From assembly GCA_031398205.1 (NCBI GenBank), contig JANNMV010000341.1:1-33469 (forward strand): DNA of 33,469 bases, read 5' to 3'. The translations under genes were made by a program, and so were the position numbers. This document shows, in pieces, positions 1 to 32,483 of this stretch (its first letter is position 1; every line of letters begins with the position of its first letter). The notes beneath the pieces were generated by a model. That model was not told where the DNA came from, did not search any database, and was given only the letters and a program-made list of their open reading frames with translations. Source of the DNA: Pseudomonadota bacterium. Lineage in GTDB: Bacteria > Pseudomonadota > Gammaproteobacteria > Burkholderiales > JALYOK01.

Positions 1-304
1 GAGCGGCCTGTGCATGAGTGTAGGTGCCGCAAGGCAAATGCGCTTGCGCACAAGTCGAACCGCGTTAGCGGTGCGGCAGGTAAGGGTGAAACGGTGGTGT
101 AAGAGACCACCGCAGACGCGGCAACGCGCGCTGGCGAGGTAAACCCCATCCGGAGCAAGGCCAAATAGGGGAACATTCGCGCTGCTCGCGCGGTTCCCGG
201 GTAGGCTGCTTGAGCGGCGCGGTAACGCGCCGCCTAGAGGAATGACTGTCTGGGGCTTGGCGACAAGCCCAACACAGAACCCGGCTTATCGGCCAGCTTC
301 TTTC
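1..304 (+). ncRNA. rnpB: RNase P RNA (type A), partial; 5' end lies outside the window
   Basis: Conserved M1-RNA blocks appear in the E. coli order: GGTAAGGGTGAAA (79-91), GTAAGAGACCACC, CCGGAGCAAGGCCAAATAGGGG, CCCGGGTAGGCTGCTTGAG, and the 3' ACAGAACCCGGCTTATCGGCCAGCTTC (274-300). The 5' P1-P4 segment is missing because of the window edge. Confidence 0.9.
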
Positions 305-427
305 TTTACCCCGAGCGGCGCCTTGACGGCGTCATTGCCAAGCCATGTACTTCGTTGTACAGTAAGAGCGCTGTTTGCTTTTTCAATCAGCGTGTTTTGT
401 CCCTAAGCGCTAGCGGCTGGAATCAAA

Positions 428-1117
428 ATGGGCGACGCGATCAAATTGCGGGACGATGAACCGCATTTCACTTTCCGGTGCGTAGACGGTACCGACGCGC
501 TGGAAGAATGTTATCGCCTTCGGTTTGACGTGTACTGTCTCGAGCGTGGTTTTCTGCGCCATGAGGATTACCCATCCGGCCTTGAAATCGACGAATTTGA
601 CATCCACTCGCTGCACTTCGCCGCGTTCAATCGTGTCGGGGATATCGTTGGCGCCATTCGCCTTGTAAAGCCTAATCCGCTAGGTTTTCCGCTACTGCAA
701 CATTGTCAGCTTCATGACGAAGTGATCCCGGATGAAATCGTCGAGATCTCACGCCTGGCGGTCAGCAAAAACTATCGCCGCCGCGTGGAGGATGACATCT
801 ACGGCATCACGCCGGAACAAATTATAATGCCCGACCCACGGCCGGAGGAGCGTCGGCGCCGCCCGGAGATCGTGCTCGGCCTTTACAAAATCATTTATCA
901 GGAAAGTAAGCGCCGCGGTATTTCCCACTGGCTTGCCGCCATGGAGCGGTCGCTCGTCAGGTTGTTATGGCGTTACGGATTTTCGTTCGATGCCATCGGT
1001 CCCGAAGTCGATTACTACGGCCCGGTAACACCCTATATCACAAATATTTCCGAGATCGAACGCGATGTGTTGGCGATCAGGCCGTCGATTTTTAAGGAGT
1101 TCAACGAAGGTCTATGA
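428..1117 (+). CDS. PEP-CTERM/exosortase system-associated acyltransferase, paralog 1 (autoinducer-synthase-like GNAT; LuxI / FeeM N-acyl amino acid synthase superfamily)
   Basis: 229-aa ORF with motifs YRLRFDVYCLERGF, EISRLAVSK, and WLAAMERSLVRLLWRYGF..IGPEVDYYGPVTPY. These fit the exosortase-associated acyltransferase family as I remember it (TIGR03694-like). It lies next to a PEP-CTERM gene. Confidence 0.8.
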   Translation: MGDAIKLRDDEPHFTFRCVDGTDALEECYRLRFDVYCLERGFLRHEDYPSGLEIDEFDIHSLHFAAFNRVGDIVGAIRLVKPNPLGFPLLQHCQLHDEVIPDEIVEISRLAVSKNYRRRVEDDIYGITPEQIIMPDPRPEERRRRPEIVLGLYKIIYQESKRRGISHWLAAMERSLVRLLWRYGFSFDAIGPEVDYYGPVTPYITNISEIERDVLAIRPSIFKEFNEGL

Positions 1118-1137
1118 CCCCGCCTACAAATTGAAAA

Positions 1138-1161
1138 GGGCGGGCCGATATCGGCCCGCCC
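1138..1161. terminator. Perfect 24-nt GC-rich palindrome between convergent genes; likely a bidirectional rho-independent terminator
   Basis: GGGCGGGCCGAT/ATCGGCCCGCCC. On the minus strand it is followed by TTTTCAATTT, a good U-tract for the PEP-CTERM gene. On the plus strand an A-run precedes it and the trailing T-tract is weak. Confidence 0.6.
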
Positions 1162-1190
1162 TCAAGATCAAATAAAGTAGCAGGAACTTA

Positions 1191-1955
1191 CTACATTTTC
1201 CGTTGGCGGGTCGTGAAGCCTATTCCAAGCAAACCCAAACCTAACAGCGCAAGCGTCACTGGCTCCGGTACCGGTACATCTACGGCAACGATCCGCGCGG
1301 TAACGAACAACTCGCTAATCTGGCCTTCTGCCGTATACACTCGATTGCCGTCAACAATGGTGCCGTCACCCGCCTCAAGACCAAAAATCAGTTGATAGTC
1401 GATGCCGCCTGAACTAAATAGCACTGGGGCGAGATCGCCGGCGTCAAAGTCAAAGAAGTCATCGCATATCGTGGCGGCTGGGTTGGGATTCGCACAGGGT
1501 GGCCCGATGTTTGGCGTTTCCGTGAATGCGATACTAACTGCGTTGCTGTCGGTAAGAACAATCGCAAGACCATTCTCGTCCGTGACCTGAATGGTATTCA
1601 CGATGTCGATGGAGTAGCTGAATCCTCGCGGAATTACTATATTGGTATGGGTTAGCTTATTAATACGCACTGCCGGATCGCCGGCATTGACGTTGTTAAT
1701 AGTTGTTAGGCTCAACAGATCCAACGAACTAACCGGGGTAAAGCCTTCAACCCACTCGATGTGGTCAGGCGTAGCGGGTAGGCAACTTAAACCACCGGGG
1801 GGAGCCGAGGGAGGGCTAGCGCTAGCACAATCAAAACCCTTGGGTTCGATGTTATCAAGGGTGAACGGGGCGGCCGATGCGGCCATTGGCAAAACCAACG
1901 ATGCTGTCAAAGCACCTAAGATTGCCAGCCCACTTGTTGATATTGTCTTAAACAT
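1191..1955 (-). CDS. PEP-CTERM sorting-domain secreted protein (possibly THxN family)
   Basis: Signal peptide MFKTISTSGLAILGALTASLVLPMAASA/AP. The C-terminus VPVPEPVTLALLGLGLLGIGFTTRQRKM has the PEP motif, a TM helix and a basic cluster. There is an internal LTHTN motif. RBS AAGGAG sits 7 nt upstream of the ATG. Confidence 0.85.
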   Translation of the reverse strand: MFKTISTSGLAILGALTASLVLPMAASAAPFTLDNIEPKGFDCASASPPSAPPGGLSCLPATPDHIEWVEGFTPVSSLDLLSLTTINNVNAGDPAVRINKLTHTNIVIPRGFSYSIDIVNTIQVTDENGLAIVLTDSNAVSIAFTETPNIGPPCANPNPAATICDDFFDFDAGDLAPVLFSSGGIDYQLIFGLEAGDGTIVDGNRVYTAEGQISELFVTARIVAVDVPVPEPVTLALLGLGLLGIGFTTRQRKM

Positions 1956-2028
1956 AATAAAGCTCCTTTGTTATCTAAAAAGTAAAAAAATCAGCGTGTA
2001 TTATTGTTATTCTCGTATTCATATCCCT

Positions 2029-2044
2029 AGCATAAACTGTGCCG
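2029..2044 (-). promoter_or_regulatory. Candidate sigma-54 (-24/-12) promoter for the PEP-CTERM gene
   Basis: The minus strand reads CGGCACAGTTTATGCT against the consensus TGGCACG-N4-TTGCW. The GG and GC dinucleotides are separated by exactly 10 nt. The site is about 75-90 nt upstream of the ATG at 1955. Confidence 0.45.
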
Positions 2045-2343
2045 ATTAAAAAATGGATTAAATTTCAATTAGATACAAATTCCGCCCGCTCTGGCTGAGC
2101 GATTAGTGTTAAGAATTTCGACATCGAATTTTGGCAAAAACTGTAATGAATGGATTGTAATTTTCCTCAAACAATCCGTTGAGGGGGCCTCGGTTATATA
2201 TAACATTATGTTTATTACCAGTTATATTTTTATATGGGGCACCCAACGCTGAAATTGCTATCCGGCTGATGGTGTAAGAAAAATCGACAGTTAACCGAAG
2301 AACGAAACACAAAATCGACCGCCGCGGCGAACATCGAAACGAT

Positions 2344-3756
2344 TTACCCCGCATAAGCGAATTTTCGTTCGTAATCAAGGGTGAGGCCGAAGGGAAAATC
2401 TAAGTAGGCCCAAAATTTGACGTCGCTACGGGCTCGAAGCCCTTCCGGTAACCCATCGCACACCAGGCCGGCGATCGGTTCGCCTTGGCTTTTCCTGAGT
2501 TGGATGTGCATAGTTATCCGTTCGCCATCGGTGATGAGGCGAAACGCGCCGGTTACGGCATCGGCAACGCTTTGGTTGTCATATAACGCATCTTGATACT
2601 GAATGACATTGCCGCCGGCCCCAAGCGAGCTTTTTTCTCGGCCCATCAGGGCGATCAGCGGCAGGGCAGACATGGTTGGCATCGCCAGGCCAACGTGGTC
2701 AAAGGCTTGGCGCACGTTTTCGCGCGTGACGACGCGCGCGATGTCGCCGGTCGTGTAGCGAATCAGCGGTATAACCCTGCCGTGTTCTATCATCGAAACA
2801 ATAAGTTGGCCAAAGCCTTGCGCGTTGGGTTCAATAATCTCAATGAACGTGCGTAGCGGATTGTAATGAAATAGGGTTGCCACCGCGGCCTGGGGCGAAT
2901 CCGGACCGAACAGCGCATCGCGGAATAACGGGTGAGAACGCACCAGACGACGAATTTGTATCGTTTGTCGCGTTTCGAATAGAATGTTCAGCCCCAATTC
3001 CGCGACGCCAAAAGAAGAACCGATCCAGCCACCGGCCGCGCTGTCTTGATCAATACCCAACTGCCGCGCAAGGTACGCGCGATAGTTTTCGCCGAAGGGC
3101 TCCTCGCCTATGATGACGCTGATCCGTTGCTTGTTCCAACTAATACCTTGGTCTCGGGCCAGGTCGACCAAGCATTTTAGAAACAACGGATCGCCAATAA
3201 GTATGATTTGATCGAACTGTGGTCCAACATCACGTGCAATCGCAAGGGCCATATCTTCGCGCACACTCGTTTCCGCAACGCAGACGGTGTTTGACGAAAA
3301 CCGCACCCCCATAGGCAAGCAGTTAATCACCAGGGTGCGCAAATGGTCGATATCAAATGCTTCTTGTAAACCGAGGTCTATATCGTCGGCCGCCGCGCGC
3401 GCCGCCACCCAAGTTGAGAGGCCGAAACTAAGACGGCCGGTCGCTCCGGAACTAGTGAGCACCCCGGCAACTTGATTCAGAGTTCCCGGCATTGCAAGTT
3501 GGGTGAGGGAAAAGCGAATGAAGGTATTTTGTTTGTTCAATATTGGGGCGCGGCGCAGGACTTCATCGGCACTGGACACACTTTGCCAGTCGAGATTGTG
3601 CTCGCGAAGCAACGTCAGATAGGCCTCACTTTTTGCGGCGCCGCGAAACGCTTTCAGTAACCTTTGATTACTGATGGCGAGCAGCTTCTCCGGCGTTGCT
3701 TTCGCCAACAATGCCAGGCGAAAGCGGCGCATCAATTTGTTTTTTAGTGAAACCAT
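2344..3756 (-). CDS. Stand-alone adenylate-forming enzyme (PaaK / coenzyme F390 synthetase / LuxE acyl-protein synthetase-like)
   Basis: 470-aa ORF. The ordered motifs TSSGATGR (P-loop-like adenylation motif), IIGEEPFG and YTTGDIARV (YxTGD) have spacing like phenylacetate-CoA ligase-type enzymes. No carrier or thiolation domain is present. Confidence 0.6.
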   Translation of the reverse strand: MVSLKNKLMRRFRLALLAKATPEKLLAISNQRLLKAFRGAAKSEAYLTLLREHNLDWQSVSSADEVLRRAPILNKQNTFIRFSLTQLAMPGTLNQVAGVLTSSGATGRLSFGLSTWVAARAAADDIDLGLQEAFDIDHLRTLVINCLPMGVRFSSNTVCVAETSVREDMALAIARDVGPQFDQIILIGDPLFLKCLVDLARDQGISWNKQRISVIIGEEPFGENYRAYLARQLGIDQDSAAGGWIGSSFGVAELGLNILFETRQTIQIRRLVRSHPLFRDALFGPDSPQAAVATLFHYNPLRTFIEIIEPNAQGFGQLIVSMIEHGRVIPLIRYTTGDIARVVTRENVRQAFDHVGLAMPTMSALPLIALMGREKSSLGAGGNVIQYQDALYDNQSVADAVTGAFRLITDGERITMHIQLRKSQGEPIAGLVCDGLPEGLRARSDVKFWAYLDFPFGLTLDYERKFAYAG

Positions 3757-3949
3757 GACAAACGGTTCAACCTTGAGGCGTGGTTTGTCAGGCTATTCTA
3801 TCGACTCACCGACTTGATGGCGAAAAATCTTGGAGTACGCGAGGCTAACGTCGCAGCAGCCTCGACATCGGCGTACACAGGTTCACGCACAGGTTGTATC
3901 TCGAGAATGACGCGAGGTTACCTCGGGGAATCTGAATGCGGGAAGTTAG

Positions 3950-4762
3950 CTAATCCAACTTTGGACAGGCGCCGCTGCGACCGCGGTGAAGATGAGGTTC
4001 AGTCGTCAATCGCATCACGCGGATGCCATCACCAAGATCGGGTTCCGGATTTCTAAACCAATCGGCCAACTGCCCGCTTAACCTTGACACGCTATCTTGC
4101 AGGCTGGAGAGACTCACACAATGGGGTGTAACTTGACCGAAGTAATCCGCCTCTGGGCCGATGGGGGCGAAAATCACGCCGTAGCGCTTGAGCAGCCGAA
4201 CCAGCGAGCGCTCCATTGCCGCATACCAGTGCGTGATACCCGCCTCGAGGCAGTATTGGTACATTGCCTTGTAAAGGCCCAATACGATCCACTCACAGCG
4301 CGGACGCGAACGCCGCTCGAGCCGCGTGGGCGCTAGCCGTCCGGATCCGGTGGCATCAATGAAGTCGCTATCCCGGTCTTCGGATCGCCGCAATAGGGTT
4401 TTGCTGACGACGAGCCGGGAAATTTCCATAGCATCCTCGACCGGTAATCCGCAGGCGCCGAGGGACGTATCGCGGCAGTAATTTTCGAATGGGAAGCCGA
4501 TGCCCGGCATATGCCGTACCAGTCGAACGCTTCCTAGGACTTTTCCGTTATGATCGACAGCGGCAAAATGCACGGCCGCAGAATCATATGAGTCAGATTC
4601 CTCCCCGTTCGGATAATTTTCCTGTGACAGAAAACCGCGTTCGACGCAATAAACTTGATATCGCAACGCGAATAACTCCCGCAGTTGATTCGTCCCGAGG
4701 TGGTCTAGCATGTCTGATTTTCTCCCTGTGCGAACTAGGACATCGAGCAAAAATGATGCCAA
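3950..4762 (-). CDS. PEP-CTERM/exosortase system-associated acyltransferase, paralog 2 (LuxI/FeeM-like GNAT)
   Basis: Motifs ALRYQVYCVERGF, EISRLVVSK, and WYAAMERSLVRLLKRYG..IGPEADYFGQVTP are collinear with the ORF at 428-1117. The start is uncertain: TTG at 4762, or ATG at 4711 preceded by GGGAGA. Confidence 0.8.
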   Translation of the reverse strand: MASFLLDVLVRTGRKSDMLDHLGTNQLRELFALRYQVYCVERGFLSQENYPNGEESDSYDSAAVHFAAVDHNGKVLGSVRLVRHMPGIGFPFENYCRDTSLGACGLPVEDAMEISRLVVSKTLLRRSEDRDSDFIDATGSGRLAPTRLERRSRPRCEWIVLGLYKAMYQYCLEAGITHWYAAMERSLVRLLKRYGVIFAPIGPEADYFGQVTPHCVSLSSLQDSVSRLSGQLADWFRNPEPDLGDGIRVMRLTTEPHLHRGRSGACPKLD

Positions 4763-5093
4763 TAAAATTTATTATAAATAACAACTGGTTAACTAACGTA
4801 GTTGCGATTTGCCCGCCTTTAATGTCTCCAAAAAACGACGAATAAAATAGATAAAATCTAACATCATGAATAAAAACGGAAAATTTTGTCTCAAAACGGC
4901 GACGATCGCGGTAAAAAATTCAGGCACGGGGCTAGTTGGCTACTTATATTCGCGGGTCAGGCTCGATAGTGCCTGTTTAGTGGATTTAGCCGATTCATCC
5001 CACGGATAACGGATTCAGTCGGGTCTCCGCGCAAGCAGGTCATCAGAGACTTCGTAACTCATTGTCCCGCCGTAAAAAAACTGTAATTTCTAC

Positions 5094-5122
5094 TTGACCT
5101 GGTATTTTTTTTCCCTTAAAGT
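5094..5122 (+). promoter_or_regulatory. Candidate sigma-70 promoter of the dcw cluster (Pmra)
   Basis: TTGACC (5094-5099), a 17-nt spacer, then TAAAGT (5117-5122), directly upstream of the MraZ-box repeats and mraZ. Confidence 0.5.
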
Positions 5123-5155
5123 GGGAAAATGTAGGAAGAAGTGGAATTTAATGGA
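5121..5155 (+). promoter_or_regulatory. MraZ operator: 10-nt-phased direct repeats
   Basis: GTGGGAAAAT / GTAGGAAGAA / GTGGAATTTA / ATGGA begin at 5121, 5131, 5141 and 5151. These are TGGGA/TAGGA/TGGAA/TGGAT pentamers with 5-nt spacers. They match the TGGGN-N5 repeat operator reported for E. coli MraZ. Confidence 0.6.
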
Positions 5156-5179
5156 TTTTTAGCGAGCCAAAACGACAAT

Positions 5180-5626
5180 ATGTTTCAAGGATCAACGGCC
5201 CTCACGTTGGATGCGAAGGGAAGGTTGGCAATTCCGACAAAGCACCGTGAGCTCATGAATGGACAGTCGCAAGGTAAGTTAGTGCTTACTGGGCACCCGG
5301 ATGGGTGCCTTTTGCTTTATCAGGCGCCGACATTTGATGAGGTTCGCTCCCGTTTATTGGCAGTAAGTGATACTAACTCACGGGTTGCCTCCTGGAAGCG
5401 CGTCATCGTCGGTATGGCTGAAAGTATCGAGCCCGACGGCCAAGGGCGGGTTTTGGTGACACCGGAATTGCGCAAATTCGCCGGCATGGAAAAACAACTA
5501 ATGATGGTGGGCCAAGGCAATCGTTTTGAAGTTTGGAGCGAGGCAGCCTGGAATCAACAATTGGAACACATTCGCGCTCAAAGCGGCCAATCGATGCCGC
5601 AGGCGATGGAGAGTTTTACTTTGTGA
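5180..5626 (+). CDS. mraZ: Transcriptional regulator MraZ
   Basis: From the ATG at 5180 the protein starts [24 protein letters not shown], the canonical MraZ N-terminus. A second SpoVT/AbrB-like repeat ([13 protein letters not shown]) is present. The upstream extension to 5141 overlaps the operator repeats. Confidence 0.9.
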
Positions 5627-6549
5627 GCGAAGCCTTCGTCCACCGTGCGGTGTTGTTGGACGAAGCGGTGGCGGCGCTGGCAATCAAAGCAGATAGGGTT
5701 TATGTCGATGCGACGTTTGGTCGCGGCGGACATAGTAGAAAAATTTTAGAAACGATCGGGCCGGCCGGAAGTCTTATCGCGTTAGACCGTGATCAAACTG
5801 CGATCGCGGCCGCGCAAGAGATCAAAGACCCGAGGTTTCAAGCGCTGCATGCAAGTTTTGGTCAACTTCAGGCGGTGTTAAGCGCTGTGGGTGTGGTGAA
5901 AGTGGCTGGGGTGTTACTGGATTTGGGCGTGTCATCACCGCAATTGGATGATCCGAGCCGCGGGTTCAGTTTTAGACATAACGGGCCTCTCGACATGCGC
6001 ATGGATCAAGGCCAAGAACAAGACGCTGCGCATTGGTTGAATCACGCCAGCGAGCTAGAAATCGCGGGGGTCGTAAAAGACTATGGTGAGGAGCGGTTTG
6101 CTAAGCAGATTGCAAGATCGATTGTTACGGCAAGGGGCCAACGGCCGCTTGCCACCACAAGGGAACTTGCCGCACTCGTGGCAGGGGCGGTCAAAACGCG
6201 CGAGCGCGGTCAAGATCCGGCAACGCGCACATTTCAGGCTGTTAGGATTTTCCTCAATCGGGAGCTTGAAGAATTGGCGTTAGTGTTAACTCAAGCGATG
6301 GACATGTTGGAAGCGGGGGGGCGCCTAGCAGTGATCAGTTTTCATTCGCTGGAAGATCGTATCGTCAAGCGTTTCATGCGCGATCAAGCCAACCCGGACA
6401 CGATGCCCTCGCGCCTGCCGCTCAAAGCCACGCAATTGCCACAACCTAAGCTCATTATTATCGGTAAGCCTGTATATGCGTCCGATGCGGAAGTTGTGGC
6501 GAATCCGCGCGCACGAAGCGCGGTTCTGCGCGTCGCGGAAAAACCATGA
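5623..6549 (+). CDS. rsmH: 16S rRNA (cytosine1402-N4)-methyltransferase RsmH (MraW)
   Basis: The GTG at 5623 overlaps the mraZ stop (GTGA). Motifs [22 protein letters not shown] and [10 protein letters not shown] are present. Confidence 0.9.
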
Positions 6550-24005: not shown

Positions 24006-24449
24006 TTAATTCTCGCGACGAGCTTGCCGTTTCAGCAGCGTCGAAACTTCGTCTTTCAGCGTCGATGCCGGCAGCTCGGCAGCGAGGCGCTGCAAGCTTT
24101 CGAGCGCAACCGGACCCATAACCGGTTTATGCTTTTGCGGCCGGCTGACGCGTTCTTCCGAATCTACAAGCACATTCACTTTAACGTCAACGGGCTGTTG
24201 CAAAAGCTGCGAGATTTTCTGTTCTAAGCTCGGGACGACTTGTTTCAGCTTGGCCGCAGCCGCGCCGTTTTTGGCAACGACAATCAGAATTCCATTTCGA
24301 AACGAGCCCACTTGGCCCAGCGCGGCAAAGGCCGCTGGAACTGAATTTTGGTAGAGTCGCTGCATATAACTCAATTCCGAAAGCTGCTGGAGTAGCGGCT
24401 TTAGCGCGGGCTCCGCATGGATGAAGGCAGTGAATGAGCGTGCGGACAT
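24006..24449 (-). CDS. dciA: DUF721 / DciA-family protein (putative replicative helicase operator)
   Basis: From the ATG at 24449 (AAGG 6 nt upstream): MSARSFTAFIHAEPALKPLLQQ...GILIVVAKNGAAAAKLKQVVPSLEQKI. This matches the DUF721 pattern from memory. The 26-aa upstream extension in the ORF track runs into AT-rich, promoter-like sequence. Confidence 0.65.
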   Translation of the reverse strand: MSARSFTAFIHAEPALKPLLQQLSELSYMQRLYQNSVPAAFAALGQVGSFRNGILIVVAKNGAAAAKLKQVVPSLEQKISQLLQQPVDVKVNVLVDSEERVSRPQKHKPVMGPVALESLQRLAAELPASTLKDEVSTLLKRQARREN

Positions 24450-25018
24450 GTGGCCTTCGAGAATCGTCGAGTAACGGAAATTAAAATTTCTTAATTCTTT
24501 GGATGCGCCATCATAATCCATGTACAAAAGCTTAGAAACTAGAACATCGGCCCGCGCTTGAAGTCGCTCCGCTTGCCTGAGCTACATTCTCGATTCATAA
24601 GTGGAAACATCGGCCCGTGGATGGTGCAGAGTTATCCGCGTCGGCGTGCTCGTTATTTTTCTCGATCGTTGCAATTCCGCTGGGCGCGTCAGGTCGCTGT
24701 GGGGAAGATTTACAACTTCGCGCCAATCGCGCGTTTGATGGCGATGTCGCGGGTTTTTAGACTTGTCCGGTTCTGTAGCACACGAATTGTCGGCTTTTTC
24801 TGTCGCGGGCGGGAAATGGCGCAGGGCGTAGCCCGGAGTGGGTTTACGCCCTGGACGGCGCGTCTGGCGGACGCCCTTGCTGCATCGCTAGCTGTGGCAT
24901 AGAATCTTCCTGGTATCCAGTGCTCATAAGATACGACAGTCGAAGGGTGGAATTCCCGATCAACTAACTCGTTGTATGTGGTATCAGTAATTCGTCTTCA
25001 CTCAAAGGAGGATATTTG

Positions 25019-26269
25019 ATGAAACATCTGCTTGCAAAAAAGAACTTTTCACTAATCACATTGGTTGCGGCCGCCGCACTCGCAGGCGGAATCTATAGCA
25101 GCGCAGCCAGTGCCGCCGATCCAATCAAACTCGGTTTGCTCGAAGACGAGTCGGGCAACTTTGCCATCGCGGTGATTCCCAAAATTCACGCGGTACAGCT
25201 TGCGGTGGAAGAGATCAACGCCAAAGGTGGTGTGCTCGGCCGTCCGCTGCAAGTGATCCATTACGATACGCAATCGGACAATACCCGCTTCCAAGAAATG
25301 GCGCGGCGCATCACCCAGCAAGATAAAGTGGACGTTGTATTTGGCGCTTTCTCAAGCGCATCGCGTGAAGCCATACGCCCCATCATGGATCGCGCCAAAA
25401 TGTTGTACTTCTACAATAACCAGTATGAGGGTGGCGTCTGCGATTCGAACGTGTTCGTTACCGGCGCCGTGCCAGAGCAGCAATTTTCCACCCTGGTGCC
25501 CTGGCTGATGGAGAAATACGGCAAGAAGGTTTACACCATCGCGGCCGATTACAACTTCGGCCAGATATCGGCGGAATGGGTGCGCAATATCGTCAAGCAG
25601 AATGGCGGTACCATGGTGGGGGAGGAGTTTATTCCGCTATCCGTTTCCCAATTCAGTCAAACCATACAAAAGATTCAAAAGGCGAAACCTGATGTATTGA
25701 TGACCTTGCTGGTGGGCGCCAACCAGGCGTCGTTTTATGGGCAACAAGCGGCCGCGAATCTCGGAATTCCCATGGGCAGTTCGGTGAATGTCGGCCAAGC
25801 CTATGAGCACAAGCGCTTCAAACCGCCCGCATTAAAAGACATGTACGTGACTGCGAATTATGTTGAGGAAGTCGAATCACCGGCGAGCGCCGATTTTGTC
25901 AAACGCTTCCGCGCCAAGTTCCCAAAAGAGCCGTACATCAACCAAGAGGCCGCTAACTCGTATACCGCCGTTTACCTATATGCGAAGGCAGTAGAGAAGG
26001 CCAAGACCACCGATAAAAAAGCCGTCGCCAAAGCCTTGGAAGGCGGCGATATCTGTCACGATGGCCCGTCGGGTAAGGTGTGCATCGATCCGAAGAGCCA
26101 TCACCAGAGCCACACGATTTACTTGGTGCATGTCCAAGCCGACCACTCGGTGAAAATTCCGAAAGTCTGGAACGACATTAAGCCTTACTGGCTGGGCGAT
26201 GTCGGCTGCGATCTTTCCAAGAAGGCCGATAACTCGCAATACACACCCAGCAGCCTGCCGAAGAAGTAA
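25019..26269 (+). CDS. Urea/short-chain amide ABC transporter substrate-binding protein (UrtA/FmdD/AmiC family)
   Basis: RBS AAGGAGGA 6 nt upstream. Signal peptide ending ASA/ADP. Motifs AVEEINAKGGVLGRPL and YNNQYEGGVCDSNVFVTGAVPEQQ closely resemble UrtA-type binding proteins. Confidence 0.85.
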   Translation: MKHLLAKKNFSLITLVAAAALAGGIYSSAASAADPIKLGLLEDESGNFAIAVIPKIHAVQLAVEEINAKGGVLGRPLQVIHYDTQSDNTRFQEMARRITQQDKVDVVFGAFSSASREAIRPIMDRAKMLYFYNNQYEGGVCDSNVFVTGAVPEQQFSTLVPWLMEKYGKKVYTIAADYNFGQISAEWVRNIVKQNGGTMVGEEFIPLSVSQFSQTIQKIQKAKPDVLMTLLVGANQASFYGQQAAANLGIPMGSSVNVGQAYEHKRFKPPALKDMYVTANYVEEVESPASADFVKRFRAKFPKEPYINQEAANSYTAVYLYAKAVEKAKTTDKKAVAKALEGGDICHDGPSGKVCIDPKSHHQSHTIYLVHVQADHSVKIPKVWNDIKPYWLGDVGCDLSKKADNSQYTPSSLPKK

Positions 26270-26287
26270 GCTCAAAGGAGAAATCGG

Positions 26288-26316
26288 GGGAAGCGTTCGC
26301 TCGCTGGACGCTTCCC
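26288..26316 (+). terminator. Intercistronic stem-loop after the binding-protein gene (partial terminator or mRNA stabiliser)
   Basis: GGGAAGCGT, an 11-nt loop, then ACGCTTCCC (9-bp perfect stem), followed by TCGGTTGATT. It sits between the SBP stop and the permease start. Confidence 0.45.
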
Positions 26317-26320
26317 TCGG

Positions 26321-27223
26321 TTGATTGCGGCGTCAACCTACTCGCGGCTAAATATCTTGACTGAGTTTTTCGCGTTTTTGTACCTATGGGGGGACGCGTT
26401 TACGTTTCTCGTACTCTCCGCAATGGGGCTCGCCATCATCTTCGGCATGATGGGCGTGATCAATCTGGCACACGGCGAATTCATCATGTGCGGCGCCTAC
26501 GTAACGGTGTTGACCAGCCGGTTGAATTTGCCGTTACCGCTATGTATGCTCTGCGGCGCCTTGGCGGCGGGAATCATCGGCGTCATTTTGGAGCGGTTGA
26601 TCATCCGCCATCTTTATCACCGTTTGTTCGATTCCATCGTGGCGACTTGGGCCATCAGCCTAATCGTGACGCAAGGAACACTTATATTCGCGGGGCCCTC
26701 AATCGAGGGTATTAAGACGCCATTTGGCAGCTTCAACATCGGCGGCTACTCGTTTTCCACTTATCGCGTGGCCCTGATGGCGATCGCGGTGTTGACGCTA
26801 ATTGCAATGTATTTGTTGTTCATGAAAACCAAGTATGGCGTGCGCGCTCGCGCCACCATACAGAACCCGCGCATGGCGCAGGCGCTGGGTGTTGATACGG
26901 GGAGGATATACAGCCTCACCTTCGGCCTCGGTGCCGCTCTGGCGGGACTGGCCGGCGCACTCTATGCGCCTACCACTACCACGGTCCCAACCATGGGAAG
27001 CGCGTTTATCGTGCAGTCGTTTGTCACGGTGGTGGTTGGCGGCGCTAACGCACTGGTCGGTACGGCGCCTGCGGCAGGAATATTGGGCATTATTCAAAGT
27101 TGGCTTGGGGCCGCATTCGGTCAAACCATCGGCCAAATCGGATTACTCGTAACCGTGATACTCGTGGTGCGACTGCTCCCCAGGGGGCTGAGCGGCGTAC
27201 TCTCGCGAGGCGGAAATGGCTAG
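26321..27223 (+). CDS. ABC transporter permease (UrtB/LivH-type)
   Basis: Polytopic protein with LGLAIIFGMMGVINLAHGEF near the N-terminus. The start is uncertain: TTG at 26321 or TTG at 26357. Confidence 0.85.
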   Translation: MIAASTYSRLNILTEFFAFLYLWGDAFTFLVLSAMGLAIIFGMMGVINLAHGEFIMCGAYVTVLTSRLNLPLPLCMLCGALAAGIIGVILERLIIRHLYHRLFDSIVATWAISLIVTQGTLIFAGPSIEGIKTPFGSFNIGGYSFSTYRVALMAIAVLTLIAMYLLFMKTKYGVRARATIQNPRMAQALGVDTGRIYSLTFGLGAALAGLAGALYAPTTTTVPTMGSAFIVQSFVTVVVGGANALVGTAPAAGILGIIQSWLGAAFGQTIGQIGLLVTVILVVRLLPRGLSGVLSRGGNG

Positions 27224-28313
27224 CTGGTTCGCATGGCTCAATGGTCCTCAGACCCTGGGAAACGGCCGGGGATTTTGGCTGAGTTTCTCCATGGTCGTGC
27301 TGCTACTCCTGATCCTGCCATTCTTTGCGGACGAGTATCTGGTAAACAACATCGGCTACTTTTTCATCTGGGTATTCATGGCCATGGGCCTGTCGTTGTT
27401 GTGGGGCTATACGGGCATCTTGAGTTTCGGTCAAACTGCCTTCTTTGGCGTCGCCGGCTACACGTATGGCATCATCACGCTCAACTATGGCGCCGACTAC
27501 GGGTTAACGTTTGGAGCGCTGTTACTGGCCGTGGCGTTAGCCGCAATAGTTGCATGGATTATCGGCTATTTCATGTTTTACGGCGGCATCCGCGACGTGT
27601 TTGTCGGTATCGTCACGCTCTCCGTCACGCTAGTGTTGGAGACTTTCATGGCGCAAACGGCGGGACCGGAATGGGCCATCGGCGCAGCGCGCCTAAATGG
27701 CTTCAACGGTATGTCGGGTATGCCGCCGCTGACGATTCCGTGGCCGGGTGAGGATGAAATTTTCCTGGAAGGGCGAACCCTATTCTGGTTCCTGGTAGCG
27801 CTAGTGGTGTTGGTGTATCTCGGGTTACGCATACTCGTGAATTCGCGCTTTGGCAACGTCATGGTGGCGATCCGCGAAAATCCAAACCGGGTGGAGATGC
27901 TGGGTTACGACGTGCGCCGCTATCAACTGATCGTCTTCATCATCGGCGGCGCGCTGGCGGGCTTAAGCGGCGTGCTGTACACCACTTGGGGCACTTACAT
28001 CACGCCCTCTGCCATGGGGCTCACGGCGGCTGCACTACCGATTATATGGACGGCGGCGGGGGGAAGAAAAGATCTCACCGCGACCCTGGTCGCCACCGTG
28101 TTCCTGGTTTGGTTGTCGCAGATGCTTGCGGTCAAGGGAAGTCAGTATGCCCTGATTCTGATGGGGTTGATTTTGTTGGTTGCCGTGATGCTGGCGCCGG
28201 AAGGTTTTGTTGTCACGCTAGCGAAAAAAATCGCACGGCTTAAGGGAGAAAACAGTCAACCACCCGCCGGCGTCCCGAAGCCAAAACTCGCAGAATCATC
28301 GCCTCCGCCATGA
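27216..28313 (+). CDS. ABC transporter permease (UrtC/LivM-type)
   Basis: Polytopic protein with LLWGYTGILSFGQTAFFGVAGY. It overlaps the preceding permease gene by 8 nt. Confidence 0.85.
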   Translation: MASWFAWLNGPQTLGNGRGFWLSFSMVVLLLLILPFFADEYLVNNIGYFFIWVFMAMGLSLLWGYTGILSFGQTAFFGVAGYTYGIITLNYGADYGLTFGALLLAVALAAIVAWIIGYFMFYGGIRDVFVGIVTLSVTLVLETFMAQTAGPEWAIGAARLNGFNGMSGMPPLTIPWPGEDEIFLEGRTLFWFLVALVVLVYLGLRILVNSRFGNVMVAIRENPNRVEMLGYDVRRYQLIVFIIGGALAGLSGVLYTTWGTYITPSAMGLTAAALPIIWTAAGGRKDLTATLVATVFLVWLSQMLAVKGSQYALILMGLILLVAVMLAPEGFVVTLAKKIARLKGENSQPPAGVPKPKLAESSPPP

Positions 28314-29023
28314 CGGCAATCCTGGAAACGAGAAATCTCAGCAAGCACTTTGGTGGGCTGCACGCCACCAATGGCGTGGACTTAAGCATCGAAGCCGGCG
28401 AACTGCGCTGTTTGATCGGACCCAACGGCGCGGGAAAGAGCACACTGTTCAAATTGATTCTCGGCAACTATCCGCCGACTTCCGGCGAGATTTGGTTCAA
28501 CGGCGAAAACATAACCAAGCTATTGCCCTATCGCCGCATCGAAAAGGGAATCAGCATTAAGTTTCAGGTACCCGGTATATTCGACGATCTCCCGGTTGCG
28601 CAGAATCTACTCATCGCATTACAACATCGCATGAGTAAAGAACGTTCGAAAACCGAGTTAGAAAGGCTGATGACGCTGCTGGATCTACAAGCCGCGCGGG
28701 CGAAGCGCGCCGGCGACCTGTCGCACGGGCAGAAACAATGGTTGGAGATCGGCATGGCCATCGCATTGTCGCCGTCATTACTGTTATTGGACGAACCCAC
28801 GGCGGGTATGTCTCCCGAAGAGACCTTCAAAACCGGTGAATTGGTCAAGCAACTTAACCAACAGGGCATGACCGTCCTGGTGATCGAGCACGACATGGTA
28901 TTTGTTCGGCAAATTGCGCAGAAAGTGACGGTGTTGCACTTCGGCAAGATTTTTGTCGAAGGATCGCTCGCCGCCATCGTCGACAACGAAGACGTCGCGC
29001 GCATTTATTTGGGGAAAGTCTGA
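28310..29023 (+). CDS. ABC transporter ATP-binding protein (UrtD/LivG-type)
   Basis: Walker A in GELRCLIGPNGAGKST (UrtD-like context), signature LSHGQKQWLEI, and Walker B LLLLDEP. ATGA overlap with the upstream gene. Confidence 0.9.
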   Translation: MTAILETRNLSKHFGGLHATNGVDLSIEAGELRCLIGPNGAGKSTLFKLILGNYPPTSGEIWFNGENITKLLPYRRIEKGISIKFQVPGIFDDLPVAQNLLIALQHRMSKERSKTELERLMTLLDLQAARAKRAGDLSHGQKQWLEIGMAIALSPSLLLLDEPTAGMSPEETFKTGELVKQLNQQGMTVLVIEHDMVFVRQIAQKVTVLHFGKIFVEGSLAAIVDNEDVARIYLGKV

Positions 29024-29736
29024 TGGCGGGGATCGAGATGCTGCAAGTTAAGGGCGCCAGCACCGGCTATGGCACTACGCCGATTTTACAAGGCATGGAA
29101 TTCACCGTGAACAAAGGCGAGATCGTCGCCATCATCGGCCGCAACGGCGTCGGCAAATCGACGTTGATGAAGTGCCTGATCGGTCTGCTGCCATGCAACG
29201 CGGGTAGCATCTGGTTCAACGGCGGCGATGTTACCCGGGAACCCGCCAACCGGCGCGCCGGACTTGGAATGGGCTACATCCCACAGGGCCGTGAAGTGTT
29301 TCCCCAATTAACCGTCGCTGAGAACCTGTTCATGGGCAATCTGATCAGCCGTCACAAGACGACCAAATTGACGGACCTAGTGTACAAATACTTTCCGATC
29401 CTAACCGAGCGACGCGAGCAAAAGGCTGGCACCATGAGCGGCGGCGAACAACAGCAGCTTGCAATAGGACGGGCGTTGATCGGCAATCCGGACCTGATGC
29501 TGTTGGACGAACCCTCCGAAGGCATACAGCCTTCCATCGTGCAGCAGATCGCCGAAAATGTTCGGCAGCTCAATAAGGAAATCGGATTGACCGTGTTGTT
29601 TGTCGAACAGAACGTCGACATGATCATGCATATGGCGCAACGTTGTTACGTGATGGATAAAGGCCGGATCGTCGACGAAGTGGCGCCGGAAAAATTGGCG
29701 GACCCAGCGGTGGTACGCCGTTATTTAGCGGTTTAA
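29023..29736 (+). CDS. ABC transporter ATP-binding protein (UrtE/LivF-type)
   Basis: GRNGVGKSTL Walker A and PQGREVFPQLTV (UrtE-like), signature MSGGEQQQLAIG, and Walker B LMLLDEP. It overlaps the upstream stop by 1 nt (TGATG). Confidence 0.9.
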   Translation: MAGIEMLQVKGASTGYGTTPILQGMEFTVNKGEIVAIIGRNGVGKSTLMKCLIGLLPCNAGSIWFNGGDVTREPANRRAGLGMGYIPQGREVFPQLTVAENLFMGNLISRHKTTKLTDLVYKYFPILTERREQKAGTMSGGEQQQLAIGRALIGNPDLMLLDEPSEGIQPSIVQQIAENVRQLNKEIGLTVLFVEQNVDMIMHMAQRCYVMDKGRIVDEVAPEKLADPAVVRRYLAV

Positions 29737-29763
29737 AAACACCCTATTCGGGAGGCGGTAAAC

Positions 29764-30753
29764 ATGGATTGGCTTAAAACTTCGATTATGCATACCCGCG
29801 GTGTGGCCAAGGGAAAAATCGGCGCGACCCATCAACTCACGGAAGCCAAGCAAGGCAAATATCACTACACGATGGGCCCGTACTCCGATCCGGTGCTATT
29901 TATTAAGCCGGGTGACCGCGTCGTGGTCGAAACCCGCGATGCGTTTGGAGGCGCGATCAAGAGCGAGCAAGATAAGCCGACGCAAAAGCTCGTGATGCCG
30001 TTTCTTAATCCACAAAACGGCCCCATCATGATCGAAGGGGCCGAAAAAGGCGACGTGGTTGCGGTCTATATCGAAACCATGGTTCCCCGCGGCCCAAACC
30101 CGCTGGGTACTTGCTGCATGATTCCTGAATTCGGCGCACTCACGGGAACTTACTACACCGCAACGCTGAACGATCCATTGCCGGAAATCGTGCGCAAGAT
30201 CAATGTCGACGAAAACAACGTGTATTGGAGCGACCGCGTGACGCTGCCGTACAACCCGCACATCGGCACTTTGAGTCTGTCGCCGGAAATTGATTCCATC
30301 AACTCACTCACCCCCGACAATCACGGTGGCAACATGGACTTGCCGGACATGGGTCCCGGCAGCATCACCTACCTGCCGGTGCGTTCGCCCGGCGCGCGGC
30401 TGTTCATTGGCGATGCACACGCCTGTCAAGGCGATGGCGAGGTCTGCGGCGTCGCCGTTGAATATCCCACCACCACCACTATCCACGTCGAGTTGATCAA
30501 GGCCTGGCCGATCGAATGGCCGCGGCTGGAACGGGAAGACTTCATCATGGCGATCGGCAGCACCCGCCCGCTGGAGGACGCAACACGCATCGCCTATCGC
30601 GAATTGGTGCGCTGGATGGCCGCGGATTATGGTTTCAACCAATGGGACGCCTATATGATGCTGAGCCAATGCGGCAAGGTGCGGTTGGGCAATTTCGTTG
30701 ACCCCAAATACACCGTCGGCGCTGCGATCAGCAAAACCTATCTTGCACCATGA
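29764..30753 (+). CDS. Acetamidase/formamidase-family amidohydrolase (FmdA/AmdA family)
   Basis: RBS GGGAGG upstream. Motifs NGPIMIEGAEKGDVVAVYIE and HGGNMDLPDMGPGSITYLPV...GDAHACQGDGEVCGVAVE are characteristic of the family. Confidence 0.85.
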   Translation: MDWLKTSIMHTRGVAKGKIGATHQLTEAKQGKYHYTMGPYSDPVLFIKPGDRVVVETRDAFGGAIKSEQDKPTQKLVMPFLNPQNGPIMIEGAEKGDVVAVYIETMVPRGPNPLGTCCMIPEFGALTGTYYTATLNDPLPEIVRKINVDENNVYWSDRVTLPYNPHIGTLSLSPEIDSINSLTPDNHGGNMDLPDMGPGSITYLPVRSPGARLFIGDAHACQGDGEVCGVAVEYPTTTTIHVELIKAWPIEWPRLEREDFIMAIGSTRPLEDATRIAYRELVRWMAADYGFNQWDAYMMLSQCGKVRLGNFVDPKYTVGAAISKTYLAP

Positions 30754-31409: not shown

Positions 31410-32483
31410 TCAAAATGCAAGTGGGGACGCGTAACCGGTCAATTCTAAATAGCCGCGGCCAACGATCTTACCGTCGATCAGTGCGCGAACCGCGCCCTCC
31501 CAATACACGGCGCGTGTCGTGGCGCCGGAATCGAGCTCTTGATCGTCGAGCAAGGGTTGCAATATTATTTCGCGATCACCCACGCGAACCCGGCACGAAA
31601 CCGGATAGCTCGCATGGGTTCGCGGTGAGCGCCATTGCTTGAGCGGCGTGAAGGAAATTTCCTCCGGGCGCAAAATCTTAATCGCGCCGTTTTTATCGCG
31701 ATAGGTTCCGCCTGCCCACAATGTCTTGCCGGAGTGCTCGCGCATGCGAAATGCCATCAGCGCCGCGCCGTCGTCAAAGTTAATGCCAGCCCAATCCCAG
31801 CCCGCCGCGCGTGGATCCATGTACTCGCTTGACCACTCGTGATCGAGCCAGGCGGTTCCTGTCACCGACTGAGTTTTGCCGTGCTGAATGAGTTTTCCCG
31901 TAAGCTGCAATTGCGCAATGCTGTAGTAGTAACTCGCGGCGAGCGGATTGGGTGACTTCTGGCTGTAGCCACGCTCGCCGTTCAACATCGGCGGCGACCG
32001 CGCCTCAAATTGGAAATCGAACGCGAACTGCGGCGCGAGAATTTTGGCGCGATACTGATTGCCATCTTGCTGCAACGACCAATCGCCGATCCACACGTTG
32101 GTCGCGCCGGTCTTCGCCTCCGCCAGGCCGAGACCGGCGCGCGCGCTGCGTTGTGCGTGCAAAAGCTTTCCTTCCGACACATCGCTCAGCGCGACGTGGG
32201 CGAACAGAATGTGTCGCGGCGAAAATTTGCTCGGGTTATCAGTGGCAACGTTATCGGGGCGGGCGCGAAAGAACGTGATTTGAAATCCACGTTCGCGTTT
32301 ATCAGCGCTTTGTAGCCATCCGGTAACGTACCACCACTCGATTCGAAATTCCGGATGGCTGCCTTCGTCGCGCGGAAAAGCTATTGCCAATCCCGGCGTC
32401 ACATTTGAGTAAGTAATGTTTTCGGCGGCAGGCGCCACCCTCGTTACCGCAAACACGATCGCGAGTAGAAGAATTCTTCGCAT
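31410..32483 (-). CDS. AttH-like lipocalin / CrtC (hydroxyneurosporene synthase)-like domain protein, secreted
   Basis: Signal peptide MRRILLLAIVFAVTRVAPAA. Motifs HPEFRIEWWYVTGWL and AWLDHEWSS are typical of the AttH/CrtC-N family. The ATG at 32483 overlaps the upstream permease stop (ATGA). Confidence 0.75.
   Translation of the reverse strand: MRRILLLAIVFAVTRVAPAAENITYSNVTPGLAIAFPRDEGSHPEFRIEWWYVTGWLQSADKRERGFQITFFRARPDNVATDNPSKFSPRHILFAHVALSDVSEGKLLHAQRSARAGLGLAEAKTGATNVWIGDWSLQQDGNQYRAKILAPQFAFDFQFEARSPPMLNGERGYSQKSPNPLAASYYYSIAQLQLTGKLIQHGKTQSVTGTAWLDHEWSSEYMDPRAAGWDWAGINFDDGAALMAFRMREHSGKTLWAGGTYRDKNGAIKILRPEEISFTPLKQWRSPRTHASYPVSCRVRVGDREIILQPLLDDQELDSGATTRAVYWEGAVRALIDGKIVGRGYLELTGYASPLAF

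Follow-up and report, generated by a model that had tools for sequence, protein, structure and literature searches.

The stretch of DNA analysed here, which we will call the window, is the 33,469-nt contig JANNMV010000341.1 of a Pseudomonadota bacterium placed in the Burkholderiales (assembly GCA_031398205.1). It opens within rnpB, the gene for the class A RNase P RNA (1-304, plus strand; Rfam RF00010, 174 bits, E 9.7e-55), whose 5' end is truncated at the window edge, and it soon reaches mraZ, the first gene of the dcw cluster (5180-5626, plus strand, 148 aa; TIGR00242 at 122.5 bits, PF02381). Between these two anchors lies an island of four genes. Two of them encode N-acyl amino acid synthases (NAS) of the TIGR03694 type, which are LuxI/FeeM-like members of the Gcn5-related N-acetyltransferases (GNAT): AT1 (428-1117, plus strand, 229 aa) and AT2 (3950-4762, minus strand, 270 aa when counted from a TTG). 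AT2 lies directly upstream of ADE (2344-3756, minus strand, 470 aa), a predicted adenylate-forming enzyme of the PaaK fold from an uncurated family, and the fourth gene (1191-1955, minus strand, 254 aa) encodes a PEP-CTERM protein of the THxN family. An earlier note on this DNA, made from its sequence alone, placed the four open reading frames (ORFs), the end of rnpB and mraZ where we find them, and the AT-rich spacers it described are confirmed by the GC profile, which is 0.35-0.37 in 1901-2300 and 0.35-0.42 in 4701-5000 against 0.50-0.62 across the coding parts. The mraZ start at 5180 matches that of relatives (148 aa); the longest ORF begins at 5141, and a sigma-70-like site lies before the gene at 5094-5122. 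Our subject is the partnership between ADE and the acyltransferases, how it came to lie at this junction, and what the two kinds of enzyme may do together.

The acyltransferases can be assigned by family models. AT1 scores 196.2 bits and AT2 179.5 bits on TIGR03694, where the cut-off is 111.95, and the matches cover profile positions 13-231 in AT1 and 16-234 in AT2 out of 241. Both proteins also match PF13444 (Acetyltransf_5) and the FeeM family PF21926, the latter with 31.3 bits in AT1 and 31.0 in AT2 (gathering score 27) over only profile positions 1-95 of 158. In an alignment of 84 sequences, the columns conserved in at least 90% of members all keep the consensus residue in both proteins with a single exception, a phenylalanine conserved in 91% of the sequences for which AT2 carries L22. 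The retained invariants include R34, E55, D57, D60, R80, E113, S115 and R116 (AT2 numbering), an R...D-x-x-D...R...E-x-S-R pattern that we take to be that of the LuxI-family invariants. AT2 likely starts at the ATG at 4711 (253 aa) rather than at the TTG at 4762; the genes of its relatives encode 254 aa. The two proteins are 47% identical and fall in different deep clades. Judged by these sequence features, AT1 and AT2 are intact enzymes of the TIGR03694 type.

The resemblance to LuxI invites a quorum-sensing interpretation, in which the acyltransferases would make a diffusible signal like an N-acyl homoserine lactone (AHL) and ADE would give an unusual acyl-CoA. AT2 does pass the autoinducer synthase family PF00765 (Autoind_synth; 41.5 bits against a threshold of 24), and there are weak matches to the TraI models of NCBIfam. 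However, the PF00765 match covers only the N-terminal part (profile positions 7-86 of 183) and AT1 has none, while the NCBIfam AHL-synthase models give 15.5-18.5 bits against cut-offs of 250-292, so that neither protein is a LuxI-type AHL synthase by those models. The comparison with FeeM and LuxI, which are N-acyltransferases dependent on acyl-acyl carrier protein (acyl-ACP), holds for the N-terminal half only, and no FeeL-like ACP gene is linked. No LuxR-type family is found among the 30 neighbour clusters most shared by the loci compared below (representatives of about half of them were annotated), and characterised members of the family make N-acyl amino acids, not AHLs (PMC9762135). We consider a quorum-sensing role very unlikely.

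ADE is a more difficult case. The earlier note had offered identities for all four gene products, and for three of them, the two TIGR03694 acyltransferases and the PEP-CTERM protein, the hidden Markov models (HMMs) bear it out. The models it named for the 470-aa protein do not. The PaaK equivalog TIGR02155 reaches 17.3 bits (E 1.4e-3) over residues 315-344 only, against a cut-off of 646.3, and a Pfam search returns no family at E ≤ 0.01, neither AMP-binding PF00501 nor LuxE PF04443; there is no NCBIfam family either, and none of 120 listed homologues has a precomputed Pfam domain over the ADE region. Since the named HMMs failed, the identification as an adenylating enzyme rests on motifs, a profile search and the fold. 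Twenty-five diverse members of the ADE family share the invariant motifs TSSG, SSxGxxELG, RYxTGD, GRxKD and DYERKF, which lie in ADE at T101-S-S-G104, S247-S-x-G-x-x-E253-L-G, R333-Y-x-T-G-D338, G372-R and D461-Y-E-R-K465-F. These fit the core of the ANL enzymes: the P-loop (S/T)SG, A5 G-x-x-E, A7 Y-x-TGD, A8 GR-x-D and the A10 lysine. A profile search with the family matches PaaK structure chains at E 8e-7 to 2e-5, and its P-loop aligns with the PaaK SSGTTG.

The AlphaFold2 (AF2) model of ADE points the same way. It has a mean predicted local distance difference test score (pLDDT) of 88.3 and a predicted template modelling score (pTM) of 0.87, and Foldseek matches it to BT_0428, to PaaK1/2 and to the benzoxazole ligases ClxA, NatL2 and AjiA1 with E 1e-17 to 1e-21, probability 1.0 and template modelling (TM) scores of 0.60-0.73. 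ADE shares with these enzymes the two-domain fold, the P-loop, the A5, A7 and A8 motifs and a C-terminal lysine of the catalytic type. Unlike them it fails TIGR02155, has an NAS as its genomic partner and belongs to a family of its own, only 14-18% identical to the PaaK-family structures. At 50% identity that family amounts to 492 clusters with E ≤ 1e-30, and to no more than 1,721 with E ≤ 1e-3, among 1.84 billion representatives, and its members go under the names 'hypothetical protein' (NCBI) and 'phenylacetate-CoA ligase' (JGI). From the motifs and the model we are confident that ADE is an intact adenylate-forming enzyme of the PaaK fold from a separate, well-delimited and uncurated family.

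ADE has a regular partner. In a scan of one genome per GTDB species, ADE relatives were found in 234 stretches, and 80 loci were examined (labels beginning with L and P denote the genomic loci and metagenomic proteins compared here). Of the 80 loci, 72 have a TIGR03694-type gene next to ADE, in most cases immediately upstream of it and with the same orientation, and most of those without an adjacent acyltransferase are contigs too short to show the neighbour. The pairing spans the Beta-, Gamma- and Alphaproteobacteria, the Acidobacteriota, the Verrucomicrobiia and the Myxococcota. In the acidobacterial genome L034 the two are a single fused protein, acyltransferase at the N-terminus and ADE at the C-terminus, and fusions in the same order occur in at least three metagenomic proteins (P0092, P0113 and P0347) whose N-terminal part passes TIGR03694. 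ADE is a near-obligate, sometimes fused, partner of TIGR03694 acyltransferases, and calling it an 'orphan', as had been done, is not tenable. Neither the PaaK-like partner nor the fusions are mentioned in the literature that we searched, outside which Craig et al. 2011 lay.

At least two acyltransferases are present in 22 of the 72 loci. We considered whether the copies adjacent to ADE and the 'extra' copies form two universal subfamilies, as two obligatory steps would have it; this was rejected since position does not track clade across taxa and a second acyltransferase is confined to that minority of loci. Adjacent genes include a THxN homologue in 29 loci and a member of another PEP-CTERM family in 12. 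With a detector that does not depend on family, a PEP-CTERM gene turns up in 26 of the 52 loci whose flanks are complete, in every case no more than 3 kb from ADE, and the loci without one belong mostly to Acidobacteriota, Chromatiaceae and Alphaproteobacteria. The earlier note would have been overturned if the four genes never co-localised in other genomes. They do so widely, usually in exosortase exopolysaccharide (EPS) loci, so the combination is a conserved module and not a peculiarity of the window.

Is there a module at all, or are ADE, the acyltransferases and the PEP-CTERM gene adjacent merely as passengers of large EPS loci? It is true that many of the loci sit inside large exosortase EPS clusters with dozens of genes. 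Yet the acyltransferase-ADE pair is kept across phyla and outside EPS loci, it has been fused in several independent proteins, and it moved as a unit into the rnpB-mraZ junction. We find the passenger explanation hardly credible.

The wider surroundings of the pair show the setting in which it usually lies. In about 20 of the 80 loci the neighbours include two permeases of the LolCE/MacB type, a LolD-like ATPase, a LolA_like protein (PF17131) and an outer-membrane protein of the DUF1302 family, the last two being without an NCBIfam model. This set lies within 10 kb of ADE in L062, L072, L077, L078, L030, L071, L081, L052, L012, L020 and L026, often followed by PrsT, and it has the appearance of a dedicated route by which exosortase loci export lipids or lipoproteins. 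About 15 loci carry PrsT (TIGR02917, 542 bits), a sugar transferase and an epimerase, the mark of an XrtA-type EPS locus, and in Sulfurimicrobium lacus the order PEP-CTERM, PEP-CTERM, acyltransferase, ADE, acyltransferase occurs inside such a locus. The island in the window is a compact, relocated copy of a module that usually resides within exosortase/exopolysaccharide loci. The earlier note had said that the island lacks an exosortase, PrsK/PrsR, a carrier protein and glycosyltransferases; none of these, and no EPS gene, is present in the 33-kb window as a whole. With E. coli AcpP as the query, the only ACP-like genes near ADE in the examined loci are three weak matches about 5.5 kb away in Undibacterium loci, and no ACP gene is linked to the pair. 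Carriers that can be cultured include Thauera propionica, Undibacterium spp., Ectothiorhodospira shaposhnikovii, Thiocapsa roseopersicina, Haliea alexandrii and Sulfurimicrobium lacus.

The Sulfurimicrobium lacus locus (L002:17145-21422) has further contents of its own: an Orn/DAP/Arg decarboxylase-family gene, a ligase of the classical AMP-binding family (PF00501) and two ATP-grasp_ST genes. This exosortase locus thus holds a second adenylating enzyme, unrelated to ADE. The decarboxylase and the ligase may correspond to the decarboxylase and ligase families associated with exosortase A, which they resemble.

How the module came to lie between rnpB and mraZ can be read from relatives in which the site is empty. 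In L084 and L085 (83% identical to the window in RsmH and 86% in FtsI), rnpB stands directly upstream of mraZ without the island; these genomes are at a distance comparable to that of island carriers. The rnpB of the window is 98% identical to theirs, and blastn aligns window 77-306 with L084 1-230 and window 5062-5693 with L084 451-1082. Because homology breaks at about 306 and resumes at 5062, the inserted segment is 307-5061, so that 4,755 nt in the window replace about 220 nt of L084. The more remote L086 and L087 are likewise free of the island, and the gaps between rnpB and mraZ across the empty-site relatives are 240-340 nt. The island is an insertion into a conserved junction, as the earlier note had supposed.

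The same arrangement is found in other carriers. The closest GTDB match, the Burkholderiales metagenome-assembled genome (MAG) L003, is 95% identical in ADE and 97% in RsmH, and the order mraZ, AT2, ADE, PEP-CTERM gene, AT1, rnpB is kept in L003, L004 and L001 (as far as their contigs reach) and in the more distant L018. A classical mobile element was considered as the origin of the island and dropped: a search of its ends for a target-site duplication, terminal inverted repeats and flanking repeats found none, there is no integrase, transposase or other mobility gene among its four genes, and its coding GC of 0.50-0.62 is like that of the flanks, with no compositional deviation. The ratios of nonsynonymous to synonymous substitution rates (dN/dS) are 0.06-0.07 for AT1, 0.10-0.18 for AT2, 0.15 for ADE and 0.17-0.50 for the PEP-CTERM gene, which is purifying selection in all four. 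The island is an old insertion that has been kept patchily and under purifying selection.

One of the carriers is informative for another reason. In L018 (10001-12540) ADE is degraded, with at least three frame changes and one stop, and so is the THxN PEP-CTERM gene, with three stops, while both acyltransferase genes and every core gene of the flanks remain intact, with low dN/dS; L018 is a single long-read MAG and sequencing error is possible. This may be a joint loss of ADE and the cargo gene, or an error of long-read assembly.

A separate observation on the junction is that the contigs of several MAGs of this lineage stop at or within rnpB, just upstream of mraZ (L083:1-382, L084:1-230, L085:1-225), and that rnpB is absent from the first 382 nt of L083. 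The junction seems to be a point at which assemblies break, perhaps from variation in the presence of the island within populations.

A 388-nt AT-rich spacer (1956-2343) precedes the PEP-CTERM gene. The earlier note had pointed to its contrast with the GC-rich flanks, but it is a regulatory region of a published type and not a sign of foreign DNA. According to Haft et al. 2006, a PEP-CTERM gene forms an operon by itself and is preceded by a large intergenic region, in which a sigma-54 motif (their motif 2) ends 71 nt ahead of the start codon on average and a presumed PrsR site lies another 63 nt or so upstream (PMC1569441). The window follows this plan closely. The same note's suggestion that the cargo gene is driven by sigma-54 is upheld by a -24/-12 element, CGGCAC-N5-ATGCT (CGGCACAGTTTATGCT, 2044-2029 on the minus strand), which matches motif 2 and extends from 89 to 73 nt ahead of the ATG. 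A putative site for the enhancer-binding protein PrsR, TGTCG-N8-TTACA, corresponds in position to motif 1 of Haft et al. and occurs twice in the same spacer, both times on the minus strand and about 165 nt apart: TGTCGAAATTCTTAACA at 2107-2123, 62 nt upstream of the sigma-54 element, and TGTCGATTTTTCTTACA at 2273-2289.

Counts across the loci tie these signals to the PEP-CTERM genes. A sigma-54 element lies upstream of 23 of 31 THxN genes and of 9 of 11 other PEP-CTERM genes, against a background of 5.2% of random windows; it is found upstream of none of 79 ADE genes and of 6 of 96 acyltransferase genes, the latter being background. The TGTCG-N8-TTACA motif occurs in 31 of the 32 upstream regions that bear a sigma-54 element (background 0.3%), at 62-96 nt upstream of it. 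RpoN dependence has been shown experimentally for a PEP-CTERM floc gene of Aquincola (PMC9850573). We conclude from the sequence that the spacer is the published PrsR/sigma-54 regulatory architecture, and the PEP-CTERM gene, because it has its own sigma-54 element and PrsR-type site, is predicted to be a separate transcription unit dependent on both. Such control implies that PrsK/PrsR and an exosortase system are encoded elsewhere in the genome.

The other transcription signals of the island are less distinctive. The right-hand spacer (4763-5061, GC 0.35-0.42) contains no sigma-54 motif (best score 7 of 11) and no match to the PrsR-site regular expression, and it presumably holds the promoter of AT2 and ADE, distinct from that of the PEP-CTERM gene. 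Scans of the island for sigma-70 promoters and terminators were not above shuffled expectation. The only noteworthy structure is a GC-rich hairpin with a 12-bp stem at 1136-1163 (GAGGGCGGGCCGATATCGGCCCGCCCTT, then a T-rich tail), which lies between the convergent AT1 and PEP-CTERM genes and is likely a bidirectional terminator.

The PEP-CTERM protein passes NF038125 (THxN) with 105.5 bits against a cut-off of 85, TIGR02595 with 22.2 against 16 and PF07589 with 26.0 against 20.7. It has an AxA-type Sec signal peptide, a THTN motif at residues 102-105, a beta-sandwich domain and a C-terminus made of VPEP, a transmembrane segment and the basic tail RQRKM. Its AF2 model is an oblong beta-sandwich (pLDDT 75), for which the only significant Foldseek matches are the Ca2+-dependent peptide-binding domains of the repeats-in-toxin (RTX) adhesins MpIBP and FrhA (E 3e-7, TM ~0.46); a sequence search of the PDB returned nothing meaningful. 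The ligands of the FrhA-type domain are AGYTD and AGWTD, whose terminal alpha-carboxylate is held by two Ca2+ ions (PMC12970687). The idea that the FrhA domain binds peptides with an aromatic C-terminal residue was withdrawn in view of these ligands. At the level of the fold, the model suggests a ligand-binding, adhesin-like role for the THxN protein. Throughout the family the polar residues H103, N105, E146, N149, D166 and E210 are invariant, D165 is present in at least 90% of members, and there is a Cys154...Cys164 pair; a metal- or carboxylate-binding site is plausible.

It is instructive to compare this gene with known PEP-CTERM systems. The operons under PrsK, PrsR and sigma-54 (PMC1569441) and the PepA floc proteins (PMC9850573) share with it the large AT-rich spacer, the sigma-54 element with TGTCG-N8-TTACA upstream, the signal peptide and the PEP-CTERM tail. 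Unlike the PepA-type proteins, the THxN protein fails NF033554 (32.9 bits against a cut-off of 80) and has a fold that resembles the RTX-adhesin domains.

The acyltransferases also have known relatives, and here the literature goes further than the earlier note, which credited the family with no demonstrated function. Craig, Cherry and Brady (J Bacteriol 193:5707, 2011) reportedly linked N-acyl amino acid synthases to PEP-CTERM/exosortase systems. Passages in two later papers that cite Craig et al. 2011 credit the TIGR03694 family with the production of long-chain N-acyl amides (PMC9762135, PMC4897644). The catalytic region of a Neisseria meningitidis protein annotated as of this type makes N-acyl-ornithines as well as N-acyl-lysines in E. 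coli (PMC9762135), and disruption of an NAS gene in Methylomonas LW13 leads to the loss of a polysaccharide band (PMC11072679). In the planctomycete Stieleria maiorica N-acyl-tyrosine derivatives have been connected with a cluster of four NAS genes and a PEP-CTERM gene (PMC7293339). Papers of 2016-2024 still called it unclear what role the lipoamino acids of such synthases play in physiology (PMC4897644, PMC11072679). AT1 and AT2 are like these synthases in scoring above the family cut-off, in keeping the invariants and in having a PEP-CTERM gene beside them, and the same genes stand elsewhere in XrtA/PrsT EPS loci; they differ in that the genes of the window lie in a 4.7-kb insertion between rnpB and mraZ, far from EPS and exosortase genes.

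The general idea of the earlier note, a module for an N-acylated small molecule, seems reasonable to us. In the form that we favour, tentatively and with a little less than even confidence, the acyltransferases make N-acyl amino acids, ADE adenylates their carboxylate for transfer, and the product is exported into the exosortase-dependent matrix. AT2 and AT1 would first N-acylate amino acids with fatty acyl groups from an acyl-ACP donor, the two probably differing in their preference for amino acid or chain. ADE would then activate the N-acyl amino acid with ATP, forming an adenylate at its free alpha-carboxylate, and the lipo-aminoacyl group would be handed to a further nucleophile; candidates are CoA, another amino acid, or an amine or hydroxyl group on exopolysaccharide or envelope. 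The resulting amphiphile would be exported, in many genomes by the co-encoded set of LolCDE-like, LolA-like and DUF1302 proteins and here by machinery encoded elsewhere. It would act in the biofilm or floc matrix together with the THxN protein, whose beta-sandwich has an adhesin-type ligand-binding fold, and which would be made only once PrsK/PrsR and sigma-54 switch on the exosortase regulon and would be processed by an exosortase encoded elsewhere.

Two known systems help to make this order of events concrete. In the operons of bacterial luciferase, LuxD releases a fatty acid from acyl-ACP and LuxE re-activates it with ATP. The proposed logic is similar by analogy, since a transferase that uses acyl-ACP would yield a free carboxylic acid and an adenylating enzyme would then activate it, but the parts are not the same: ADE has no match to PF04443 at E ≤ 0.01, the acyltransferase is GNAT/LuxI-like and not an alpha/beta hydrolase of the LuxD type, and there is no reductase partner. 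The stieleriacine cluster of Stieleria maiorica combines several NAS paralogues with a PEP-CTERM gene beside EPS genes, and an ATP-dependent enzyme that activates the carboxylate of the N-acyl-tyrosine has been postulated (PMC7293339). The postulated activator there is TcdA-like (E1-type), not PaaK-like, and that cluster has methyltransferase, desaturase and oxidoreductase genes which the island lacks. Activation after acylation also agrees with the closest folds of ADE, which include CoA-independent PaaK-type ligases that couple the adenylate to a second substrate (NatL2, AjiA1 and ClxA).

The sequence of events could also be the reverse. ADE might first activate a free fatty acid, or an unusual acid such as an aromatic or branched one, to an acyl-AMP or acyl-CoA that serves as donor for the acyltransferases, so that a specialised N-acyl amino acid would be made independently of fatty-acid synthesis. 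The PaaK fold is in keeping with this; characterised members of that family make acyl-CoAs or acyl-adenylates of small or aromatic acids. The only sequence-level PDB matches of AT2 are the LuxI-type synthases RpaI (6wn0) and BjaI (5w8a), which use acyl-CoA, and there is no ACP gene in the neighbourhood. The tight pairing and the fusions would fit substrate channelling in either direction. On the other hand, the PDB matches are weak (E 1e-4 to 1e-3) and cover the N-terminal 60 residues only. TIGR03694-type enzymes make long-chain N-acyl amino acids in E. coli without a partner ligase (PMC9762135), and acyl-ACP is the established donor in aminolipid synthesis, where the use of fatty acyl-AMP or acyl-CoA ligases (FAAL/FACL) is not established (PMC11631085). 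In L018 the acyltransferases are intact under purifying selection while ADE is degraded, which suggests, in this single long-read MAG, that they are independent of it. Taken together, the activity of the synthases in E. coli on their own, the established part of acyl-ACP as donor in related aminolipid synthesis and the absence of linked genes for ACP or for making a donor mean that ADE is probably dispensable for the supply of acyl groups. We regard a donor-supplying ADE as the main rival, less likely than the order that we favour.

It is important to realize what weighs against the order that we favour, in which ADE acts on the N-acyl amino acid. Characterised PaaK-family enzymes mostly activate small or aromatic acids, and the best PDB sequence matches of AT2 are, as just said, to synthases that use acyl-CoA. 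Gene order and fusion order are silent on which enzyme acts first. A PEP-CTERM gene is missing from half of the 52 full-flank loci, which makes the THxN protein no universal member of the pathway, and its likeness to adhesins is at the level of fold only (TM ~0.46), without a sequence match.

A more far-reaching possibility is that the product becomes attached to the exosortase substrates themselves. The activated lipoamino acid, or an N-acyl-lysine or N-acyl-ornithine with its free amine, would be joined to the cleaved C-terminus of the THxN protein or to the exopolysaccharide as the exosortase's partner, and the lipid-anchored product would be moved to the outer membrane by the LolCDE-like and LolA-like machinery. 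Where a PEP-CTERM gene is present it always lies within 3 kb of ADE, and the minimal island keeps exactly the acyltransferases, ADE and the THxN protein together. Homologues of lipoprotein-release proteins of the Lol type and a LolA-like protein stand alongside the pair in about 20 loci, and in L018 the genes for ADE and the THxN protein are both degraded while the acyltransferases persist. A homologue makes N-acyl-ornithine and N-acyl-lysine, which bear a free amine (PMC9762135), and Haft et al. proposed a periplasmic nucleophile for exosortase (PMC1569441). Against this, the acyltransferases and ADE have no signal peptides and hence are cytoplasmic, whereas exosortase chemistry takes place at the membrane or in the periplasm; half of the loci have no nearby PEP-CTERM gene; the cargo gene is transcribed on its own and under different control; and no report of the lipidation of a bacterial PEP-CTERM protein was found in the literature searched. 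We judge this anchoring quite unlikely. The broader version of the same thought makes the acyltransferase-ADE pair the small-molecule arm of the exosortase pathway: a lipo-aminoacyl unit would be placed covalently on the processed THxN protein or the exopolysaccharide, either directly or by serving as the exosortase nucleophile, and a route of LolCDE-like, LolA-like and DUF1302 proteins would lead to the outer membrane. This we would call rather unlikely.

The rest of the window holds the dcw cluster, lpxC, a urea/amide-type ABC transporter, an amidase-like gene and three unassigned ORFs. Downstream of lpxC, at 25016-30753, a five-gene ABC transporter is followed by an acetamidase/formamidase-like gene (weak FmdA match). 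The substrate-binding protein of the transporter scores 593 bits on the 'archaeal-type' urea model TIGR03669, above the cut-off of 495, whereas the permeases and ATPases narrowly miss their urea-transporter cut-offs; the system may be for the uptake of amides rather than urea. The minus-strand ORFs at 24006-24527 (173 aa), 31410-32489 (359 aa) and 32483-33343 (286 aa) have no NCBIfam match at E ≤ 1e-10.

The association of NAS genes with exosortase systems was already known, as was the regulatory spacer of PEP-CTERM genes. What is new is that the synthases have a conserved PaaK-like partner, at times fused to them, that THxN and Lol-type genes recur nearby, and that a minimal four-gene version has moved to the rnpB-mraZ junction. 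We believe this turns a vague association between NAS and exosortase into a defined two-enzyme pathway, of which the four-gene island is a natural minimal version, and the key question becomes which carboxylate the ligase adenylates and what its acceptor is. Should the ligase do no more than widen the range of acyl donors, this would add modestly to what is known of lipoamino acid biosynthesis. Should it join lipoamino acids to matrix proteins or polysaccharide, it would have a bearing on the construction of flocs and biofilms. The attachment of a lipo-aminoacyl group, if true, would explain why NAS genes track exosortase systems and would be a new bacterial pathway for the lipidation of protein C-termini or polymers.

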